Below, piece after piece: positions 1,222 to 10,123 of a stretch of DNA of 10,437 nucleotides. The stretch comes from Bdellovibrionota bacterium (lineage in GTDB: Bacteria > Bdellovibrionota > UBA1018 > UBA923). A program made the position numbers and the translations under genes. Location: assembly GCA_040754655.1 (NCBI GenBank), contig JBFMCE010000111.1, forward strand, positions 1 through 10,437, in the 5' to 3' direction. The notes beneath the pieces are model-generated. The model saw only the letters and a list, made by a program, of their open reading frames with translations, searched no databases and was not told the origin of the DNA. How positions within the stretch are numbered: position 1 is the stretch's first letter; every line of letters begins with the position of its first letter.

Positions 1222-3198
1222 ATGAAGTTGAAAGGACTTGCCCTTACGCTTCCTATCTGTGATCTTCGCCCCTGTCTCGACCCCGAATCACGCCTGAAAT
1301 CATTATCACCAGATGTTGCTACGCTGGGTGAAACTCACATCATTGGATTTGGAGCTGCAAAGAGACGAAAGCTCAATATCCCTTGGCGAGAGCGAGACAC
1401 GGTCTTCTTCAAATGTCACGGCGCAATTTCTCTTCCAGAGTACATGCCAGACGGCGAGTCTGTAGATCGAGCCGTTCGGCGGCTCTACTTAGACGAGCTT
1501 GCCTTGGTTCGATTTGAGTTTATGATTTTTGGTCCCCCCAAACATCATTTTGTTGAATACCGGCGTCGCGCAGATGAATTCGCGCGAGATTTTTGGGAAA
1601 GCAGGCTGAGGATAACCGAACGACGCTGCAAAACTGAGGAGACCTTCGCAACGGCGATCCCCAAGTTAGTCAACAAATTTGTTGCGATGACAACACCAGA
1701 GTTTAAGACTAGACCCATTCGATCCGATTTAGTTAAAGCCCTTGAACCACTGATTCAAGTTATTGCTGAAATTTCGGCTAAGGAACGTGAAGCCCTGAAC
1801 CCGGAACATTCATATGATGAAAGCAAGATTTGTTTAGCCTTCCGCTCCCTCAAAATGAAAGGTAGAGCTACATCTGTTGACACAGTATATATCACTTTTC
1901 CACCAGGATCATTCAATCGCCCTGGGAAGCCTGAATATGAACCGTTGGATCAAATAAGGGCTCACATGGCGTGGCTCCATGCAGATTTAGAAATTTTAAC
2001 GCACATACTAAGAAAGTGCGTTCGTAATGAGATTGATCCTACCGTAGTTTCAGCTTACTTGAAAAGACTCGCCGATGGCCTTCGGGACGCCCCAAGACTT
2101 GGTCAACCAGAGCGAGAGATTCTAATCGAACTCGTTAGGGACATGGATAAGTTTCACCACAACCGCGTCTCCCTGCTCCTTGCGGGTCTAAGAGAGTCTG
2201 CGTTACCAACTCGGCTTAAAAACGAAGTTGATGATATGCTTCGCCGCTATCTATTGGGCGGCTCGCCACCAAAGGTAGAGTTGAAAAGGAGATATGAGGA
2301 TATGACAACTGACGATTCAATTGAGCCATCTCCAAGAGTATTGATATCCTATGCTTGGGAAGATGCCGCTCATAAGCAGTGGGTAAAGGACCTTGGGACG
2401 AAGCTACGAACTGAAGGTGTAGATATCATTCTTGACGAATGGAGTACCGCCCTCGGAGATCGATTGCCACACTTTATGGAGCAAGCTGTTCATGGCAGCG
2501 ATTTTGTCGTCTATATCTGCACTCCCGAATACAAACGTAAATCAGACGGTCGCATTAGAGGCGTTGGTTATGAAGGGAATATAATCACTGCGGAGCTCTA
2601 CGCAACAAGTAATGAACGTAAATTTATACCTGTCTTAAGGAAGGGTACTTGGGATGATGCAACCCCAACTTGGGCAGGTGGTAAGCGAGGTGTTGATCTC
2701 ACAGGCGATCCCTATTCTGAAGACCAGTATGAAGATCTGCTTCAGTGCCTTCATAGCTTAACAGAAGGACCGCCAGCGCTCGGCCCCAAACCGAGCAAAG
2801 ACAGGTTTAAAGCTAAGGCTACGAAAAAGGATGCGGACACCGATACAGGATCTGGGACTGTAAAAGTAGGTGCCGCTCGACCTGTTACAGATGAAGACTT
2901 AAGAGATATGAAGCTTGAATTACAACATATCGATGCTCTCAATATAGGTAAAGCAGACAGTGATATTGGCGTAGTAAGGGGGAAGCTTCAAAAAATATAT
3001 GTACTGGAAAATATGGTACGACGATTACAAGCTGAGGGGCGACCTGCTAAGGCTTGGCACTTACAGCGATGGATTTACAAAATAGAGAGAGAAGGGCGCG
3101 TATCAACAGATTTTCAACGACGGATAGATGAAATTAATGACATTGAGGCTGAGAGATCTGCACTTAGGGAAGATGAACGGCGAAAAGAGAGAAAATAA
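1222..3198 (+). CDS. TIR/SEFIR-domain protein with unknown ~360-aa N-terminal domain and charged helical C-terminus (putative defence protein)
   Basis: Region ~2335-2790 reads RVLISYAWED..HKQWV..L...LR.EGVD.ILDEW....GD....FMEQ.V...DFV..ICTP.YK.K......GVGYE...I..ELY.....KFIPVLR, typical of bacterial SEFIR/TIR_2. Start set at ATG 1222 after GAGAGG. Confidence 0.8.
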   Translation: MKLKGLALTLPICDLRPCLDPESRLKSLSPDVATLGETHIIGFGAAKRRKLNIPWRERDTVFFKCHGAISLPEYMPDGESVDRAVRRLYLDELALVRFEFMIFGPPKHHFVEYRRRADEFARDFWESRLRITERRCKTEETFATAIPKLVNKFVAMTTPEFKTRPIRSDLVKALEPLIQVIAEISAKEREALNPEHSYDESKICLAFRSLKMKGRATSVDTVYITFPPGSFNRPGKPEYEPLDQIRAHMAWLHADLEILTHILRKCVRNEIDPTVVSAYLKRLADGLRDAPRLGQPEREILIELVRDMDKFHHNRVSLLLAGLRESALPTRLKNEVDDMLRRYLLGGSPPKVELKRRYEDMTTDDSIEPSPRVLISYAWEDAAHKQWVKDLGTKLRTEGVDIILDEWSTALGDRLPHFMEQAVHGSDFVVYICTPEYKRKSDGRIRGVGYEGNIITAELYATSNERKFIPVLRKGTWDDATPTWAGGKRGVDLTGDPYSEDQYEDLLQCLHSLTEGPPALGPKPSKDRFKAKATKKDADTDTGSGTVKVGAARPVTDEDLRDMKLELQHIDALNIGKADSDIGVVRGKLQKIYVLENMVRRLQAEGRPAKAWHLQRWIYKIEREGRVSTDFQRRIDEINDIEAERSALREDERRKERK

Positions 3199-3367
3199 AA
3201 CACTGTGATCTATACGGCTATTGTTTCGACCACCAGAGACCAGAAAGCCAGGAGTCACTTTATGAAGCTCCCCCGTTTCTAATCCGCTTACCATTAACCA
3301 CCGCATCTTGTGTTCACCGACGCGCCGCGACCGGAGACGAACACAACGATTTGCGGCCACCGCTTCT

Positions 3368-3538
3368 ATGTTCAAATGCTCGCGCTGCCACGCCACGAAC
3401 CTGGCAAGCCAGATCGAGAAGGAACACGGCGACTTCATCGTGCGCTGCCTTGAATGTGGCGCTGAAAACGTCATCGCTCCGATCCTCAACAACAAAGCAC
3501 CTCTGCCGACATTAGGAATAGTTGGCTGGCGCGATTAG
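3368..3538 (+). CDS. Small zinc-ribbon protein (56 aa)
   Basis: MFKCSRC...VRCLECG gives two CxxC pairs with zinc-ribbon spacing. ATG at 3368, no clear SD. Confidence 0.55.
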   Translation: MFKCSRCHATNLASQIEKEHGDFIVRCLECGAENVIAPILNNKAPLPTLGIVGWRD

Positions 3539-3691: not shown

Positions 3692-5074
3692 TCACCGGCA
3701 CGGAAGCCTTAGTTTATCCCCCTGCGCAGTGTGTTTTCCTGTGGTGCAAGCGCACGACGGGTTGGCTTCGTAGACGGTTGACTTTACCTCACCAGTAACC
3801 GGGTGGTACGTTAGCTGAGGGTGATATGACCTACCCATATAATTGGTCACCAAATTGACGAACTCTGCGACCGCGAGCCCGGCGACCACCGTATTTAGGA
3901 ATATGACTGAAGGCGCTGATATATCAGCGCCAGTGACATACCCCTCTTGAGCTAACTTGCCTCGCTCTTCACGTGGGAGACTTTCTTCAGCTATCCTCTT
4001 CCCATCAAGGACACCGTAGCACCAGAGACATGCCTGCTTTGGTAGGATGAGATATACTCTTCCGTTTGCAGCCGTAATGTGACCATTCCGACTGTCTATT
4101 CTGTTGCCCATATCAATTACCGGAGTCAGGTATTGATAGACGAACTGATTCAGAATCGCCCGCGACCATTGATTATCAGTGCAGCAAAAAATGACATCAG
4201 CCTGACGTAACTCTAAGGCGATTGCTTCGCTGATGATGTTACCCTTTATCGTGCTGACTTCCGTTCCAAATCCCACGGAGTTTGCCAAACGCTCAACTAT
4301 TTCTACTTTGGCTCTACGGGATGTGATATCTTCCAGTGTTGAGTTGTATATCCGTGAGGTATTACTTGCCTCAACGTGATCATCATCCACTACAATGAGC
4401 CGCTGAACTCCTAGCCGGATGAGTTGATCAATAACGACTGAGCCAGTTCCTCCAGCACCGACGACTGCTACAACAGTCTCAGCAATTCGCTTTTGGCCGT
4501 CAGCGCCGAAGGCCTGCACCTGCCGGTCGTGAGTTTCCTGATGATATAAAGCGTGTTGGGCTTGCCGCCCATTGGCAGGGATCTTACTGATTGTCGATCC
4601 GATCAATGTTATGTGTGCGAGTTGGTGCATTACTGCATCAGGCAGCCAAACACGACCACATACGACACGCTGCCCAAATACTAAACTTGCGTGAGGTCCT
4701 TCAGGCACTCGCTGATAGAAATTATTGAAGCTCTCTATATCTCCCTGATCATCTACCCAGGAGAAGTCAACCTCATCTCGGCAAAACGGATGACTATGCG
4801 TGAGCACAATGCTCTGATTATTCAGCCTTGCTCGCTTCATCACACGAGCTACGGTCTCAGGTGAAATCTGCAGCCGATCACTCCTCTGGGTGATGAAATC
4901 CTCCGCGCGAAGCTTGATGATTTCTTGGACAAGCAGCTTGACCTTACGCGGATGAACACTGCGGCCACAGAGCAAATATGCAGCGTACTCTGTTCGGGGA
5001 TCACCGAGGAGGTGATCTTGCAGTTCGTAAAGGTGCGACTCTTGAATTACGACTTCGTATACCGGTTCGCTCAT
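3692..5074 (-). CDS. JAB/JAMM peptidase - ThiF/E1 adenylyltransferase fusion
   Basis: N-terminal JAMM motif E29...H93-S-H95...S105-x2-D108. C-terminal ThiF motifs HDRQ, GAGGTG (206-211), DDDHVEASNTSR, K256, CCTD, and Zn ligands C349xxC352 and C441xC443. Start overlaps the upstream stop (ATGA, 5071-5074). Confidence 0.92.
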   Translation of the reverse strand: MSEPVYEVVIQESHLYELQDHLLGDPRTEYAAYLLCGRSVHPRKVKLLVQEIIKLRAEDFITQRSDRLQISPETVARVMKRARLNNQSIVLTHSHPFCRDEVDFSWVDDQGDIESFNNFYQRVPEGPHASLVFGQRVVCGRVWLPDAVMHQLAHITLIGSTISKIPANGRQAQHALYHQETHDRQVQAFGADGQKRIAETVVAVVGAGGTGSVVIDQLIRLGVQRLIVVDDDHVEASNTSRIYNSTLEDITSRRAKVEIVERLANSVGFGTEVSTIKGNIISEAIALELRQADVIFCCTDNQWSRAILNQFVYQYLTPVIDMGNRIDSRNGHITAANGRVYLILPKQACLWCYGVLDGKRIAEESLPREERGKLAQEGYVTGADISAPSVIFLNTVVAGLAVAEFVNLVTNYMGRSYHPQLTYHPVTGEVKSTVYEANPSCACTTGKHTAQGDKLRLPCR

Positions 5075-5445
5075 TGCTTTTGCTCCAACCTGCTATCAAT
5101 GAATTTGAGGTAACTTATGAGACCATCACTCGAAGGATTCCACCTGTGCGGATGCCAAGAGAAGCGCAGCCAAGCCTGCCCAAGATTTTGCTCGATGGAG
5201 GTGTTGGCCGGCATTGCTCCATTGGCCAGCAATAGTTGAGGGTGCATCCAAAACATATCCATACCCCCAAGGGGGTAGTTTGGCGGCACTTTGATCAACA
5301 GAGGGCTGCTTTTCTGATTAAAGCCATTTGGCAAAGAATATTGCTCGATCACTACAAAGTCCCATCCACCCTCTTGTGGGTGGAGCTGAAGCGTGAATCC
5401 TTCACGCCTCAGCTCTTCGATCTCATCAGCTAGTTGGTTGTTCAT
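5071..5445 (-). CDS. Prokaryotic E2/UBC-like protein (Prok-E2_E type), no cysteine
   Basis: Y.LP.G......LLI..P.NYP....DMFW..P.L and W.RFSWH...WNP..D motifs. Lies between the Ubl and E1 genes. Confidence 0.85.
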   Translation of the reverse strand: MNNQLADEIEELRREGFTLQLHPQEGGWDFVVIEQYSLPNGFNQKSSPLLIKVPPNYPLGGMDMFWMHPQLLLANGAMPANTSIEQNLGQAWLRFSWHPHRWNPSSDGLISYLKFIDSRLEQKQ

Positions 5446-5450
5446 TACCC

Positions 5451-5714
5451 CTACCCCAAATTGCCGGGAACAACGCCATAAAAACGCATCCCGTTTTTCA
5501 ATTTGACTTCTTCATTGTCGCGGATTCCCTTATCTGGCTCTGGACCAGGAACCTCCAGGAAGAGTTGATAGTCAGCAGGTATGCCGCCCAAGTGCTTGAT
5601 CTCGGCTCCTGTCATTACTGGCTTGGGGGCAACGAACTTTTTTCCGTTAATGAAAATGTTGATGTGGAGAGGCGCTACTTTGCCCTCCTCTTTAGGTTTA
5701 TGCATTTCTTCCAT
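5451..5714 (-). CDS. Ubiquitin-like protein (single multiubiquitin-type beta-grasp domain) ending in Gly
   Basis: IFINGK......MTGAEI..L.GI...YQLF........D..I...E.V.L.NG.RF pattern and C-terminus PGNLG*. Start re-called at ATG 5714 (AGGAGG 7 nt upstream). Confidence 0.85.
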   Translation of the reverse strand: MEEMHKPKEEGKVAPLHINIFINGKKFVAPKPVMTGAEIKHLGGIPADYQLFLEVPGPEPDKGIRDNEEVKLKNGMRFYGVVPGNLG

Positions 5715-5998
5715 CGTGAAACCTCCTGAATCTGTAACTGACAACCATCGGGGTTACTGGTCGTCTTGAATGAACCTTTTCATCGGTTCACCTATGATTC
5801 GCTTGAGCAGGTCTGTTTTTGCCATTAGTAATTTCGACCTGCTCCTTAGATATTTTTTGTCTGAGTGGCAAATTTCGCTTTGCTCAATCGAAATAGAAGT
5901 AGGCTAGAATGCTGCAGAGATAGCCTCGCGAACCGAATGAACAAAGAAAGCAGACTTTGGAGGTTTGTGCTTATGAAATATTGAGGAGGTTTCCTTCT

Positions 5999-6676
5999 GT
6001 GGACGACAAAAATTATGAAGGCGCTATTCAGTGGGAACGAGTTATTAAAAGATTGATGAGGTACGCACACTACTATGCCTGTAAAAAAGCAGGGTTTAAG
6101 GTGAACGAAACCAATGCTGAAGATATTATTTCTATTGGCATCAGCCCGTCAGACTTGATGTCCTCAGTCATTACTGATTTTATCGACGGCAAAATCCCAC
6201 CAAACCCGACAAAGCTGCTGACCGAGAACTACTTGGTGAATTTACTACGGAAGGCATACAGAGAAGAGTTGATGAGCTTTTTTAGATCGCCTCGTGTAAA
6301 AACAACCAAGTATATGGATGAGATTGAACGCTATTCTAAAGATGGTGAGAAAATAGAAGAACCCTTTTTGAGTACCTACAAGGTTGAAAAGATACGTGGC
6401 GTGGATCAGCACCAAATCATAGGCGACCCTGTGCCGCAGCCGGACGAGGATCTAGACTATGAAGCCGAACTAAGAGTACTCTACCAGATATCAGATGGTG
6501 ATCCGGAGGTCCAGGAGATGATCAAAGCCATTTGTGAACACGATTTGGAAACTCCGCGCGAAATAGCCACGTTTCTCAAAACGACCGCACAAGATATATA
6601 CAACAGAAAGAAGAGAATGAGAAGAATGTACGAAGACCTAAGACAATCGTACCGAGAGAGAAAAAAGGCTGTCTAG
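5999..6676 (+). CDS. Divergent sigma70/ECF-like sigma factor or HTH regulator
   Basis: Region-2-like helices (WERVIKRLMRYA...SPSDLMSSVITDFIDGK...LVNLLRKAYREEL) and a region-4-like HTH (TPREIATFLKTTAQDIYNRKKRMRR). Start re-called at in-frame GTG 5999 (GAGGAGGT 8 nt upstream); the track starts at TTG 5957. Confidence 0.65.
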   Translation: MDDKNYEGAIQWERVIKRLMRYAHYYACKKAGFKVNETNAEDIISIGISPSDLMSSVITDFIDGKIPPNPTKLLTENYLVNLLRKAYREELMSFFRSPRVKTTKYMDEIERYSKDGEKIEEPFLSTYKVEKIRGVDQHQIIGDPVPQPDEDLDYEAELRVLYQISDGDPEVQEMIKAICEHDLETPREIATFLKTTAQDIYNRKKRMRRMYEDLRQSYRERKKAV

Positions 6677-6704
6677 TAAAGTCAAAGCCCTACAAAGGAG
6701 ATTT

Positions 6705-7193
6705 ATGACGACTGAAAAAAGACAAAAGGATCAACTGACAGTGAAGAACCCGAAAAAGGCTTGGCGCGTCATAGAGGATTTAATGCTTGATGATGAAGAA
6801 ATGACCATCGATGAGTTGGACACCGAACTAAGAGCATCCGGTATTGACCCTGATGAATGTGTGAATAAGGTTTTCCAGGCCGCAGAAAGAATCGCGAGGG
6901 ATCCTGAGCGGTCGGGTCGCGTGTCCCCACACGTGTCCGATATTCTAAGCCAACTATCGCAACGCCACCGCTCAGAAGCAAAGTCTGCGGCCAGCGATGA
7001 GCAACCTGAGAAAGACAAAAATACCCGCTCGACCTCTGCAGGAGGAGCGCAACAGGCGCAAGCTGCAGTCAGCAGTTTCTACCGTAATTACGAAAAAACG
7101 TCTAACAAGGACCGACAGCTTTTGGAGAAGAATGAAAAGCGTCTACAGAAGAAAGCTAAGAAACTCGCACGGAAAACGCGAACGTCGAAATAA
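6705..7193 (+). CDS. Hypothetical protein, putative anti-sigma / peptidase substrate
   Basis: Strong SD (AAGGAG). Acidic helical N-terminus (IDELDTELRASGIDPD), low-complexity linker, FYRN motif and basic tail. Function inferred only from its position between the sigma-like and peptidase genes. Confidence 0.55.
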   Translation: MTTEKRQKDQLTVKNPKKAWRVIEDLMLDDEEMTIDELDTELRASGIDPDECVNKVFQAAERIARDPERSGRVSPHVSDILSQLSQRHRSEAKSAASDEQPEKDKNTRSTSAGGAQQAQAAVSSFYRNYEKTSNKDRQLLEKNEKRLQKKAKKLARKTRTSK

Positions 7194-7213
7194 TTAATGA
7201 TGGAGTTTGTAAG

Positions 7214-8011
7214 ATGAGTGTCATTTATGCTCGCCGTATTATTGAGGGACGTGGAATAACCGATCCTAAAGAGATTGATCTTGAATCTATAGCAAACTCC
7301 CTAGAAGTAACGATTGAGGAGGCCGACCTAGACGGATGTGATGGTATATTACAAATGATACCAGACCCGAAGTGCGGCATCATCACTGTGAAGAAATCCA
7401 TCAAAGAACCGGGCCAGAAGCGGTTTGTCATTGCTCACGAATTGGGTCACTATGAAACACCCAATCAGCCGAGTCAGGATTATCATTGCAGCACAGCGGA
7501 TATGAGTCCGAAAGGTCATCGTTTTAAGCCGGAAGAGAGAGAGGCAAATGAATTTGCTGCAGAGTTGTTAATGCCAGAAAAGCTGTTTAAACCTAGAATG
7601 AAGAACAAGCGACCCAGTATGGATTTGATCAAATCTCTAGCAGGCGATTTTCAAACGACACTGACTGCCACACTCAGGAGATTCGTAAAGCTCACAGATT
7701 ATCGCTGCGCAATGATTTCATCTGTTGACGGAAAAGTAGAATACTTTGTACCCTCTGGTGATTTTCATCATAGTATTAGTAATGGCACACCTCTCCATCC
7801 TAATTCTTATGCCATAGACTTCTTCAAGTCGGGAAGAATCGAGAATAAGATGCATTCAGTTTTTGCTAATACTTGGATTACAAGCGATCGAATAAGTCGA
7901 AATGCATGCATATACGAACATTCTATTGCCCAACCAAGTTACAAGTCTGTGCTAACACTTTTATGGATAAGTCAGGACATTGACGGGTTGCATTTTCCGG
8001 TGAAAAATTGA
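7214..8011 (+). CDS. ImmA/IrrE (Peptidase_M78) zinc metallo-endopeptidase, last 7 aa MITE-derived
   Basis: KRFVIAHELGH (HExxH), EREANEFAAELLMP, HTH-like segment (LAGDFQTTLTATLRRFV) and C-terminal GAF-like region, as in IrrE/CapP-type proteins. Confidence 0.92.
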   Translation: MSVIYARRIIEGRGITDPKEIDLESIANSLEVTIEEADLDGCDGILQMIPDPKCGIITVKKSIKEPGQKRFVIAHELGHYETPNQPSQDYHCSTADMSPKGHRFKPEEREANEFAAELLMPEKLFKPRMKNKRPSMDLIKSLAGDFQTTLTATLRRFVKLTDYRCAMISSVDGKVEYFVPSGDFHHSISNGTPLHPNSYAIDFFKSGRIENKMHSVFANTWITSDRISRNACIYEHSIAQPSYKSVLTLLWISQDIDGLHFPVKN

Positions 8012-8183
8012 GCCATTTTCCGCTCAAACAGAGAGCCACTTTCAGAGGTTCACAACGCGAGGGCCGTCTGCGGCAATTGCCGTGCAACACGTGAGATAGC
8101 CACACAGGCCGTCAACGGCCCAGCTTGTTTTTGTGGCTCAAACTCTCACCGGAAAATGGCTCAAACTTCGAGCGGAAAATACA
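7989..8183. mobile_element. 195-bp non-autonomous IS21-family-type element (MITE)
   Basis: TG...CA ends. Left TGCATTTTCCGGTGAAAAATTGAGCCATTTTCCGCTC, right (rev-comp) TGTATTTTCCGCTCGAAGTTTGAGCCATTTTCCGGTG, each with two ~23-bp tandem units. 5-bp direct repeat CGGGT on both flanks (7984-7988, 8184-8188). Confidence 0.88.
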
Positions 8184-8188
8184 CGGGT

Positions 8189-8268
8189 TCTACTCCCTAG
8201 ATGAGTACGATGATCGAGAGCCAGATTTAGACCACTTCACCCCAGACGGTAAACGCTGGCGTTGGTAA
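8189..8268 (+). pseudogene. Displaced native 3' end of the ImmA/IrrE peptidase gene
   Basis: Removing the MITE plus one CGGGT joins ...QDIDG in frame to FYSLDEYDDREPDLDHFTPDGKRWRW* (TAA 8266-8268). Confidence 0.8.
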
Positions 8269-8436: not shown

Positions 8437-8742
8437 ATGGAACTTCTCACGGATGAACTGCGCTCGCAGCTTCCGCCGCTCTATGCCCAGGAAAAAGTTA
8501 AAGACCCAATGGTACACGCCAAATTCTTTACCCCCTGGACTCACTGGACGTGGTACGTGACCGAAGGCTCAGAGGAAGAAGGCGACTTTATCTTTTTCGG
8601 CTACGTCGCCGGTGACTTTGGAGAGTGGGGATATTTTTCGCTCAACGAGCTTGAGTCGGTTCGAGGGCCAGGGGGTCTGACCATCGAGCGCGATCTACAT
8701 TTCACTCCCAAGCGCAAAAGCGAGATTCCAGACTTTCCCTAA
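8437..8742 (+). CDS. DUF2958-like protein
   Basis: LPPLYAQE...DP....KFFTP...WTWYVTE......FFGYV.G...EWGYFSL.EL.......GL.IERDLHF.P signature. ATG 8437 follows AGGAGGA. Confidence 0.8.
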   Translation: MELLTDELRSQLPPLYAQEKVKDPMVHAKFFTPWTHWTWYVTEGSEEEGDFIFFGYVAGDFGEWGYFSLNELESVRGPGGLTIERDLHFTPKRKSEIPDFP

Positions 8743-8781
8743 CCCACAACAACTGGCTACGGAAAAGGCAACGCCAATGCC

Positions 8782-8809
8782 AGAGGGTAGGATACTTCCC
8801 TGCCCTCTT
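8782..8809 (+). terminator. Hairpin / possible terminator after DUF2958-like gene
   Basis: AGAGGGTAGG...CCTGCCCTCT, a 10-bp stem with one G-U and only a short T tail. Confidence 0.45.
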
Positions 8810-8862
8810 GATTCATTCACCCGATGTGCTACGCTTCACTCATCATCAAATCTTCTCTGCCA

Positions 8863-9384
8863 ATGCCCACCAGAAATCTCATCGCCCCTGATCTCATCGA
8901 GCAACACATCTACCTGATTCGCGGCCACAAGGTAATGCTTTCAACTGACCTGGCCGCTCTCTACGCCGTCGAGCCACGGGCGCTTGTCCAGGCAGTCAAG
9001 CGCAACCTCGACCGCTTCCCTGATGACTTTATGTTCCAACTGAGCAAGCGAGAGTTTGAGAATTTGAAATCACAAATTGTGACTTCAAGTTGGGGAGGAC
9101 TGCGCCGCGCCACCCCTTACGCCTTCACCCAGGAAGGAGTAGCAATGCTTTCCAGTGTGCTGCGAAGCAAACAGGCAATCCAGGTCAACATCGCCATCAT
9201 GCGAGCCTTTGTCCGGCTCCGCTCAATTTTGGCTGCGCATAAGGAACTGGCCCGAAAGATCGAGGCGCTGGAGCGAGAAACCAAGACGAATTTCAAAGCC
9301 GTCTTCGAGTTGATCAACAAATATCTCAAACCGCAATCACTGCCCAAGTCTTCAATCGGTTTTCGCACCGAAATAAATAAATAA
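8863..9384 (+). CDS. ORF6N-domain DNA-binding protein (antirepressor-like)
   Basis: IYLIRGHKVMLSTDLAALY.V....LVQAVKRN..RFP.DFMFQL...GGLRRATPYAFTQEGVAMLSSVLRS..AIQVNIAIMRAFV...IGF. Start could be ATG 8824 or 8863. Confidence 0.9.
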   Translation: MPTRNLIAPDLIEQHIYLIRGHKVMLSTDLAALYAVEPRALVQAVKRNLDRFPDDFMFQLSKREFENLKSQIVTSSWGGLRRATPYAFTQEGVAMLSSVLRSKQAIQVNIAIMRAFVRLRSILAAHKELARKIEALERETKTNFKAVFELINKYLKPQSLPKSSIGFRTEINK

Positions 9385-9409
9385 TCGAGCCATCACAGTC
9401 TGTGACACC

Positions 9410-9441
9410 AGAGAGCAGGGCCACTTCCCTGCTCTCTTTTT
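9410..9441 (+). terminator. Intrinsic terminator after ORF6N gene
   Basis: Perfect 11-bp stem AGAGAGCAGGG / CCCTGCTCTCT, 6-nt loop, followed by a T run. Confidence 0.8.
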
Positions 9442-9632
9442 GCTGCCCAGTGGCAGTTGACTACAGATCAAAAGTGAGGTAAACATCGTCACACCCAATA
9501 TACGGGTAAAAACGCACGGGCCGGACGCACGGGACTGGAGACACCTACCTTAACCCGGTCCGTGCTTTAATTTTCTTGGCCTACTATCCCCCCGCCTGCC
9601 GCACACGCTCTCTCAAAAACACCAAGCCGCCT

Positions 9633-9837
9633 TGCTCACGGGTCTTCCATTGTACCGAATTGCAGGCTCCCGGCTGTCAAGCCCCTCCAAAGAAATTCGG
9701 GGGCTTGCTTTTTTATCCTTCCCTCCTCGCCTACGCTTCGTCGTGAACATAAATCGCTTGCGCTTCCCCTACCTGTAGAAGAAGCCAATCGGCTTGACAG
9801 CGCCTGCAATTCGGTTGTTCGCCCCTTGCGGTGAGCA
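9633..9837. promoter_or_regulatory. Long fold-back resembling a single-stranded DNA (Frpo/ssi-type) promoter
   Basis: Helices 9654-9667/9802-9815 (14 bp), 9673-9683/9791-9801 (11 bp, contains TTGACA) and 9633-9639/9831-9837 (7 bp). Minus strand TTGACA (9680-9675) to TACAAT (9654-9649), with the -10 largely unpaired. Confidence 0.6.
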
Positions 9838-9889
9838 TAGCAGCGCTGCGAGCCGCCAAGAAGAACGCGCTGAAAGAAAGGAACAAGTT

Positions 9890-10123
9890 ATGTTCCAACA
9901 AGACAAACCAAAAAGCTTCATGCAGGAACTCGACCTGTGGAGCGATGAACATGTCATCGGCCCGCTGATCGATCCTCACTACAGCGATCCGGCTGAAAAT
10001 CGTGAGGCGACCATCGCCCGCGTCAAGAAAGCCATCCGCGAGAAGGTTCTTGAATCTTATCGCAACGGCCAGGGCGCAGGCCCGGCCAAAGCAGGTGCGC
10101 GGAGGAGCTATGCAAAACGCTGA
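9890..10123 (+). CDS. Hypothetical protein (77 aa)
   Basis: ATG 9890 after AAAGGAA. Protein-like composition (FMQELDLW...VKKAIREKVLESYRNG). Lies directly downstream of the fold-back. Confidence 0.65.
   Translation: MFQQDKPKSFMQELDLWSDEHVIGPLIDPHYSDPAENREATIARVKKAIREKVLESYRNGQGAGPAKAGARRSYAKR

Follow-up and report, generated by a model that had tools for sequence, protein, structure and literature searches.

A Type I Bub-like operon in a Bdellovibrionota bacterium beside a predicted activator-type relative of the CapH+CapP switch

Genes and features of the locus

Contig JBFMCE010000111.1 of a Bdellovibrionota bacterium (assembly GCA_040754655.1) carries on its minus strand an operon of the bacterial ubiquitination-like (Bub) type, composed of bubA, bubB and bubCD, which encode a ubiquitin-like protein (Ubl), an E2-like protein and a fusion of a JAB peptidase with an E1, respectively. 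Facing this operon on the plus strand are three genes, here called the triad, for a divergent sigma factor, a partner protein and the peptidase CapP. The window analysed is the entire contig of 10,437 bp, which belongs to an assembly of 3.78 Mb that is 90% complete. The positions of all features are collected in Table 1.

A first-pass annotation of the same DNA had taken the six genes for an inducible conjugation and defence system switched on by proteolysis. All six open reading frames (ORFs) of its head-to-head layout were found where it placed them, and both the 5-nt gap between bubA and bubB and the ATGA overlap of bubB with bubCD are real. On the plus strand, 28 nt separate the sigma gene from the partner gene and 20 nt separate the latter from capP. 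Strong ribosome-binding sites precede the probable starts of bubA (ATG at 5714 after GGAGG) and of the sigma gene (GTG at 5999 after GAGGAGG). The span given for the system, 3692..8268, begins correctly; its end has to be read differently, as the CapP frame stops at 8011 and the stop at 8268 belongs to the original, now displaced tail of capP. Neither the insertion in capP nor the missing bubE had been recorded. The arrangement of the triad is not a product of chance, because the same order of sigma factor, partner and CapP recurs in other genomes.

Table 1. Positions of the genes and other features of the locus within the window
Feature	Positions	Strand	Description	Basis
bubCD	3692..5074	-	JAB peptidase-E1 fusion, 460 aa	PDB 9ea4 (BubCD) E 1.8e-43; Pfam; residues
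bubB	5071..5445	-	Stand-alone serine E2, 124 aa	PDB 9eae (BubB) E 2.9e-12; PF14462
bubA	5451..5714	-	Single-domain Ubl, 87 aa, free terminal Gly	PF14452 (Multi_ubiq) E 2.6e-13
Arm facing bubA	5795..5824	-	Promoter-like: TGGCAAAAA block, 9-nt gap, second block	Arm of inverted repeat I1
Arm facing sigma gene	5866..5895	+	Promoter-like	Other arm of I1
Sigma gene	5999..6676	+	Divergent extracytoplasmic function (ECF)-like sigma-70 factor, 225 aa; sigma2 and sigma4 helical domains, disordered linker	Profile; AlphaFold2 (AF2) model; Foldseek
Partner gene	6705-7193	+	Partner without helix-turn-helix (HTH), 162 aa	Complex model; domain-wise hidden Markov model (HMM) matches; column counts
capP	7214..8011	+	M78 peptidase, 265 aa as read	PADLOC capP E 3.4e-60; PDB 7t5t E 1.8e-15
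Insertion in capP	7989-8183		Non-coding, like a miniature inverted-repeat transposable element, 195 bp	TG...CA ends; 5-bp target duplication
Displaced CapP tail	8185-8268	+	27 codons, acidic and Trp-rich, still open in original frame	Matches tails of P0013 and other close homologues

A Bub-like conjugation core without bubE

The conjugation core belongs to a described class, as had been expected, and of the proposed "Bil- and Bub-type" label it is the Bub half that stands. BubCD aligns with the BubCD of Citrobacter (9ea4) over residues 9-407 and matches ThiF (E 8.5e-37) and Prok-JAB (E 0.01) in Pfam. Its JAB site (E29/H93/H95/D108) is intact and R241 is present for adenylation, while Y379 of the crossover loop aligns with the GY motif of the Citrobacter protein in a stretch (residues 353-395) with 0 Cys. 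BubB matches Prok-E2_E (PF14462, E 7.6e-23) and has no Cys; its residues D63/S96/H98 are invariant in 16/16 sequences, namely the window protein and 15 stand-alone homologues with 65-82% identity. All residues which the available text of Ye et al. reports as necessary are kept in the window (bioRxiv 10.1101/2024.11.21.623953). The type I and II Bil (bacterial ISG15-like) systems likewise join the functions of Ubl, E2, JAB and E1 in one operon, as described in the accessible part of PMC10557695, but they do so with four separate genes and Cys-based E1 and E2 proteins, whereas here the E2 is free of Cys and the JAB is fused to a Tyr-type E1. An assignment to Bil was rejected on these grounds.

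The stop codon of bubA coincides with the Gly junction of the fused BubAB proteins in relatives L082-L085 (L numbers denote the loci compared). A chance stop splitting a BubAB fusion was considered and rejected, as the two genes lie in different frames and 15 relatives share the stand-alone start of BubB; judged from these sequences, the split is stable in the clade of the window. Separate Ubl and E2 genes also occupy at least 31 rows of Table S1 of Ye et al., as far as that table could be seen.

What sets the core apart is the missing bubE. PF20137, the family of bubE (DUF6527), was unmatched in the genome (90% complete), and a profile of 6 BubE proteins was unmatched in the window, including the 3.6 kb of contig after bubCD. 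Nor was bubE found in 4/4 genomes with the nearest BubB relatives, whose completeness was not given, so that its absence looks like a trait of the clade. All Bub operons are said to have bubE in the available text of Ye et al.; because that set was chosen by DUF6527, operons without bubE could not have entered it. Compared with Type I Bub (6E.1/DUF6527) as described there, the window shares the order Ubl, E2, JAB-E1, the crossover Tyr, the Ser-His-Asp E2, the intact JAB and a divergent CapP. It differs in the lack of bubE, in a regulator made of a sigma factor and an HTH-less partner rather than an HTH repressor, and in its E1, where a CxxC at 349/352, absent from the Citrobacter BubCD, is accompanied by a pair of C-terminal Cys (441/443). 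This CxxC is common to the E1s of relatives without bubE, yet it is present too in L113, which has bubE. By its sequence, the core is filed as Type I Bub-like and not as a canonical member, since bubE was not found.

A sigma factor and its partner

The first gene of the triad encodes a protein with the layout of the ECF (group IV) factors, with sigma2 and sigma4 only in about 200 aa. The profile of its family matches PDB structures of SigH (3mzy, E 2.9e-5) and 5zx2 (E 1.3e-4) across both domains, and it also reaches the ordinary ECF sigmas of L123 and L125. Foldseek rows obtained with the AF2 model are sigma factors, all weak (best E 1.7e-3), ESM Atlas neighbours carry Sigma70 families at 0.96, and TIGR02937 matches with E 0.002, which is under the cut-off. 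Searches with the single sequence returned one relative, and none in plasmids.

The second gene lies directly after the sigma gene, which is the gene order of an anti-sigma factor. Its product consists of an N-terminal predicted sigma-binding domain (about residues 10-87) and a C-terminal region that resembles CapH and contains Y126|R127, a putative cut site for CapP. It is soluble; the highest hydropathy over 19 residues among 48 partners is 1.39. In Pfam the window copy matched no family, and the 48 partners gave 10 scattered single families with no named HTH among them, unlike the true CapH-type neighbours, which do match HTH_3.

Prediction of the complex of sigma factor and partner gave a score of 0.67 against 0.00 for the best control. 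The mark applied to this score was reached by 116/157 solved complexes and by 2/215 mismatched pairs, counts that apply only roughly because the alignments were made for this analysis. Between runs, at least 76% of contacts were the same, and the predicted local distance difference test (pLDDT) score of the partner was at least 62. In the model, partner residues 10-87 contact sigma residues 9-25, 51-64, 77-80 and 152-216, and the N-domain sits between sigma regions 2 and 4. The helix at 51-64 corresponds to the polymerase-binding region 2.2 of ECF factors. The model supports binding of the two proteins, to which a likeness to solved complexes of sigma and anti-sigma factors could contribute.

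The two halves of the partner have different relatives. Positions 1-71 of the partner HMM match the N-terminus of the partner at L120 with 18.0 bits, while the host background reaches a maximum of 12.0 (8,313 ORFs); positions 104-141 match residues 71-116 of an HTH-bearing CapH at L039 with 26.9 bits. None of 7 other stand-alone HTH partners rose above background (best 11.3 bits, L083), the C-terminal domain of CapH was not among the results of a profile search of the PDB, and a wide fold search gave generic helical matches alone (best Z 6.0). The position of Y126 is F, H or Y in 41/48 partners and that of R127 is R in 36/48, and the F|R-type motif is conserved in partners that are just 12-22% identical to that of the window. 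For comparison, the mapped cut in CapH is F82|R83 (F82|RGYKNL), as reported in the available text of Lau et al. (bioRxiv 10.1101/2022.04.27.489752). These matches suggest that the partner is a chimera of a sigma-binding N-domain and a CapH-like C-terminus, and the earlier view of the middle gene as a cleavable anti-sigma factor is most likely right.

Two other architectures occur in the family. At L120 (200-2067, minus strand) a sigma factor of the same family is paired with a 426-aa partner in which the shared N-domain leads into a hydrophobic stretch and then a 300-aa extension, like a membrane anti-sigma factor; no CapP was found within its 1.5-kb flank. At L109 (7269-7853) a three-part partner, with the sigma-binding N-domain and an internal XRE HTH, lies upstream of a Type II Bub operon on the same strand and may link CapH with the HTH-less partner as an intermediate form.

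CapP and its insertion

The third gene had been taken for a switch protease of the CapP/IrrE type, which the matches in Table 1 bear out. The PADLOC capP match spans profile positions 9-241 of 242, the 7t5t alignment covers residues 34-254, and the architecture is that of CapP, with an M78 HExxH peptidase, HTH, GAF and a cysteine switch. The active residues are H75/E76/H79/E108 and the switch is C92 with D96. Across the clade C92 is kept in 34/34 proteins, D96 or E in 34/34 and Y243 in 33/34. Y243 corresponds to Y264 of the E. coli CapP groove for single-stranded DNA (ssDNA), whose residues could be mapped only by offset through a Thauera alignment.

The reading frame is interrupted at codon 259 by an insertion with 51-nt imperfect terminal inverted repeats made of 23-bp units, and the final 7 residues of CapP derive from it. 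No second copy was found in the assembly. Ends of this kind may point to an origin of the IS21 type. The tail that it displaced is kept in 12/22 of the closest CapP homologues, and several others, 253-256 aa long, stop at the same point and have no tail.

Promoter-like arms between the two operons

The intergenic region contains an inverted repeat, I1, with 27-nt arms (5798-5824 and 5866-5892). In 17/33 intergenic regions of triads, that of the window included, the best inverted repeat beats 20/20 shuffles. No sigma-70 consensus site was found in this region of the window, and the motifs from unsupervised Gibbs runs were A/T tracts of little use. A two-block promoter model (TGGCAAAAAA, 9-11 nt, NCGGCATNTAN), whose training set of 28 loci left out the window, picks exactly the two arms of the latter. 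The pair ranks at the 99.5th percentile among 14,727 tiles of the host, and the arm at 5795..5824 is the top minus-strand site of the window. The model places a second triad of the host, on contig C13, at the 98.8th percentile. When frozen, it placed four fresh triads at the 98.9th, 95.5th, 99.8th and 65th percentile, with other tiles outscoring the intergenic pairs of L115 and L116, and five sigma matches outside triads at the 23rd-73rd percentile. Over 16 loci, identity of the second block is 0.75 within a locus vs 0.53 between loci, and that of the spacer is 0.34 vs 0.27. With moderate confidence, these patterns point to the arms as candidate promoters of a private sigma factor, one for the bub operon and one for the sigma operon, which would be autoregulated. 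A third, partial arm copy (5830-5853, plus strand) lies between both arms and is 71% identical to 5871-5894; it is possibly a relic or a second promoter.

Recurrence of the triad and its cargo

A metagenome scan with the alignment of the CapP clade returned at least 80 loci, the best 55 of which (E up to 2e-16) were examined. Four had no upstream DNA and 2 had an HTH gene upstream; 49/51 had a partner-type gene of 120-165 aa. In 41 of these 49 a sigma-like gene of about 200 aa stands directly before the partner, and among the remaining 8 loci, 7 are cut off before that point and L013 lacks such a gene. The profiles of the sigma and partner families were built mostly from metagenome CapP loci, and the independent tests are the searches of the host phylum, of plasmids and of a second phylum. 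Against 400 genomes of the host phylum, the sigma profile gave 10 non-self matches, all (10/10) followed by a partner and CapP; L109, with its internal HTH and a weak CapP match, is among them. Both plasmid records matched by CapP carry the triad. In the second phylum, 7 new sigma matches comprised 2 triads, 1 membrane-type partner, 1 orphan and 3 weak matches to ordinary sigmas. The second triad of the host itself (G000:C13:19926-21850; L114 6948-8847) belongs to a different branch of the CapP tree; it has its own promoter-like pair and faces a 153-aa gene without a Pfam family.

What the triad faces varies widely. The cargo was tallied, among the matches listed, for the 27 metagenome triads that had 500 nt or more of upstream sequence; loci facing other defence genes were about as numerous as those facing Bub-like operons. 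Here the divergent neighbour was Bub-like in 6, of the cyclic oligonucleotide-based antiphage signalling (CBASS) type in 4 and GIY-YIG in 2; single cases were Pycsar, SIR2 with a prokaryotic Argonaute (pAgo), type III restriction-modification (R-M), DUF3892+DUF499, DUF2188+KAP, HNH and DUF1883, and 8 neighbours were unrelated or without a family. Triads in the phylum sample face Bub II, TIR-caspase-TIR, CBASS or DUF3892. Overall the cargo (CBASS, Pycsar, Thoeris-like, pAgo, R-M, Bub) is mostly defence. On a quick, unfinished CapP tree the Bub cargo needs 5 changes, a count as low as in 51/500 shuffles. Looked at from the E2 side, the triad accompanies 1/6 Bub loci and HTH genes accompany 5/6, with an M78-like neighbour or fusion in 4 of those 5.

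The diversity of its cargo excludes the fixed six-gene unit that had been proposed. The adjacency check suggested with that proposal succeeds within the clade of the window and fails beyond it, where most E2-side Bub loci use HTH regulators. Eight contigs, paired on bp size alone, appear to be common to close homologues of CapP and of BubB (5,854 and 8,236 bp among them), 3 of them also with a partner homologue, and 3/11 BubB contigs longer than 3.5 kb have no CapP match. Within this clade the six genes probably form a unit, while the regulator, to judge by its neighbours, appears to travel independently of its cargo.

Triad and complete Type I Bub occur together at L116 (2149-8639), on a plasmid of Pontibacter actiniarum (NZ_CP021236.1). 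There, umuD and a Y-family polymerase gene follow capP directly on the same strand, which fits a link to DNA damage.

Relation to known systems

The published systems are compared here as described in the accessible parts of each source. CapP beside Bub is not new: Ye et al. list CapH+CapP in 168/544 Bub operons, and 15% of type II Bil systems have CapH/CapP. Some rows of Table S1 of Ye et al., e.g. Mucilaginibacter sp. OK098, have gaps where the gene numbers do not run on from CapH to the Ubl or from CapP to CapH. Such gaps could hide sigma-bearing triads filed as CapH+CapP. Lau et al. noted a predicted sigma-70 factor beside capH/capP in 24 CBASS systems, with no follow-up in that text, and their table may list such triads.

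With CapH+CapP (Lau et al.; Calloji et al., bioRxiv 10.64898/2026.05.16.725639) the triad shares the cysteine switch of CapP, a partner that is encoded immediately before it and bears a putative F|R-like site in its paired C-terminal helices, divergent orientation, and a cargo range that includes CBASS, DUF2188, DUF3892 and 6E/Bub. By contrast, the partner in the window has no XRE HTH and a predicted sigma-binding domain instead, and activation of private promoters is predicted rather than derepression. DdvS/DdvA of Myxococcus xanthus offers a parallel, with an ECF sigma factor, an anti-sigma factor binding sigma2/sigma4, a CBASS-CRISPR island and a proposed proteolytic release (PMC11506125). 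DdvA, however, is a transmembrane zinc anti-sigma factor with a periplasmic TPR-CHAT sensor and intramembrane proteolysis (PMC11506125), whereas the window has a soluble partner and a cytoplasmic M78 peptidase. The ssDNA-sensing immune controllers described in these sources (CapW, CapH+CapP, CapK+CapS) all lift repression. A literature search covering mainly freely available papers, with Lau et al. and Ye et al. as preprints, found nothing on an HTH-less anti-sigma factor cleaved by CapP; in the ECF re-classification paper PMC7826278, the terms IrrE, M78 and DUF955 are absent from the text and its one supplement.

A model of induction and its alternatives

On balance, and with modest confidence, we favour the reading of the locus as a mobile cassette that combines a Type I Bub-like operon with a portable switch related to CapH+CapP but of activator type. 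The regulator is apparently an uncharacterised variant of CapH+CapP, and the conjugation core is of a known kind minus one gene. At rest, as modelled, the N-domain of the partner would clamp sigma regions 2 and 4 and keep the private sigma factor off RNA polymerase. Build-up of ssDNA after DNA damage or phage infection would, by analogy with CapP, open the cysteine switch, and CapP would then cut the CapH-like C-terminal helix of the partner at Y126|R127, where the motif lies. The cut partner may lose dimerisation, be degraded, or both, which would free the sigma factor; of all the steps this one is the least secure, as the modelled interface does not include the cut site. Free sigma factor would fire the two back-to-back promoters predicted from the sequence, the first serving bubA-bubB-bubCD and the second the operon of the sigma gene itself, giving positive feedback. 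If Citrobacter Bub is a guide, BubCD would adenylate BubA, which would pass in oxyester linkage from Y379 to S96 of BubB and then be conjugated to targets. The JAB domain would be the likeliest deconjugase, because BubA needs no processing and bubE is missing.

Several observations weigh against this reading. A release step beyond the cut itself would be needed, and HH-align probabilities for the two halves of the partner are low (35% for the N-domain vs L120 and 11% for the C-domain vs L039). The sigma factor has no Pfam match, and Sigma70_r2 is matched by just 3/35 members of its family. The two-block model was chosen afterwards, with the arms of the window already known; it exceeds the 99th percentile in just 10/28 leave-one-out loci and scored high on 1/13 HTH-type controls, and a single-block model missed the arms, with the window at about the 90th percentile and wrong sites. 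In CapP, the ssDNA residue R90 corresponds to Q68 by offset from HExxH (with K69 and R70 adjacent), a state found in 23/34 clade members, the equivalent of W280 falls at about residue 259, which is the insertion point, and K195/W196 could not be mapped. According to the accessible part of PMC12828697, close IrrE homologues respond to ssDNA and distant ones need not. As for the antiphage role that had been assumed, none has been demonstrated for Bub in what PMC13373217 makes available.

It is unlikely that the sigma and anti-sigma pair is correctly identified and that only the trigger differs, be it a different ligand, a different substrate of CapP, or cleavage that merely primes a second protease. 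The position of the cut, the change of R90 to Q68, the divergent C-terminal helix and extra CapP tail of the clade and the distant M78 enzymes that ssDNA does not stimulate all suit that view, but the conservation of C92, D96/E and Y243 and the persistence of the F|R-type motif in highly diverged partners speak for the trigger known from CapP. Decay of the window copy within a functional family, the insertion having disabled CapP and locked the operon off, is rather improbable. The insertion does replace a tail that is often kept, starting where an aromatic residue sits in 10/34 proteins, and bubE was found in neither window nor genome; yet the peptidase, HTH and GAF regions are intact up to W251, close homologues end at the same place without a tail, the other genes are all open with their catalytic residues kept, and bubE was equally not found in the genomes of the nearest BubB relatives. 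Quite improbable is a two-piece repressor, in which the partner would dimerise a sigma-like HTH protein on the intergenic repeat and CapP cleavage would derepress a housekeeping promoter in the manner of CapH+CapP. A CapH-like region for dimerisation and cleavage, an inverted repeat and a sigma factor too divergent for Pfam would all fit, but sigma2 and sigma4 are both kept and modelled as buried behind the partner, the arms are bipartite with a spacer far less conserved than the second block, and there is no sigma-70 site to repress.

Beyond the window, the activator-type reading can be extended, tentatively and at somewhat less than an even prospect, to a family of portable controllers that crosses phyla. 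Its members would combine a private ECF-like sigma factor, a soluble chimeric anti-sigma factor released by ssDNA-activated CapP, and paired back-to-back promoters whose second element co-varies per locus, with the cargo (Bub, CBASS, Pycsar, Thoeris-like, pAgo, R-M) being swapped; the cargo here would be a Bub subtype without BubE and with JAB as eraser.

Genomic setting

PF14462 is above the cut-off in 2/400 other genomes of the host phylum, and a search of 40 relatives found BubB in none; the cassette is patchy in the phylum and was probably acquired sideways. The remaining genes of the window resemble mobile or defence cargo (TIR/SEFIR, DUF2958, ORF6N, AdoMet decarboxylase-like), and the window has no tRNA. 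A 654-aa TIR_2/SEFIR protein (1234-3198, plus strand; PADLOC bSEFIR E 2.5e-61 over residues 351-533), whose N-terminal 350 aa match no family, is encoded convergently with the Bub operon and is likely a second defence gene. Between it and bubCD lies a small zinc-ribbon ORF with two CxxC (3308-3538, plus strand), for which all Pfam matches are sub-threshold and which is not DUF6527. At 53-946 an AdoMet decarboxylase-like gene (minus strand) diverges from a 106-aa gene without a family, with a 16-nt near-repeat (558-605) right at the starts of both. Genes of mobile-element type follow at 8437-10123, namely DUF2958, ORF6N (PADLOC PDC-S05 E 1e-56) and a 77-aa unknown; ORF6N is also found near the triads of L003 and L015.

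Implications

If the sigma version of the switch is real, toxic defence genes would be silent by default, their induction would be amplified by feedback, and the system would bring its own promoters when it moves between hosts. It would also explain the sigma genes beside capH/capP in the 24 CBASS systems. For Bub operons that are cloned alone, it would account for a possible lack of phenotype, and the regulator would give a route to induction and to the finding of targets. The cultured strain Pontibacter actiniarum DSM 19842, whose plasmid carries the triad with a complete Type I Bub, makes a test direct. Pairs of promoter and sigma factor from this family could moreover serve as orthogonal parts inducible by DNA damage.

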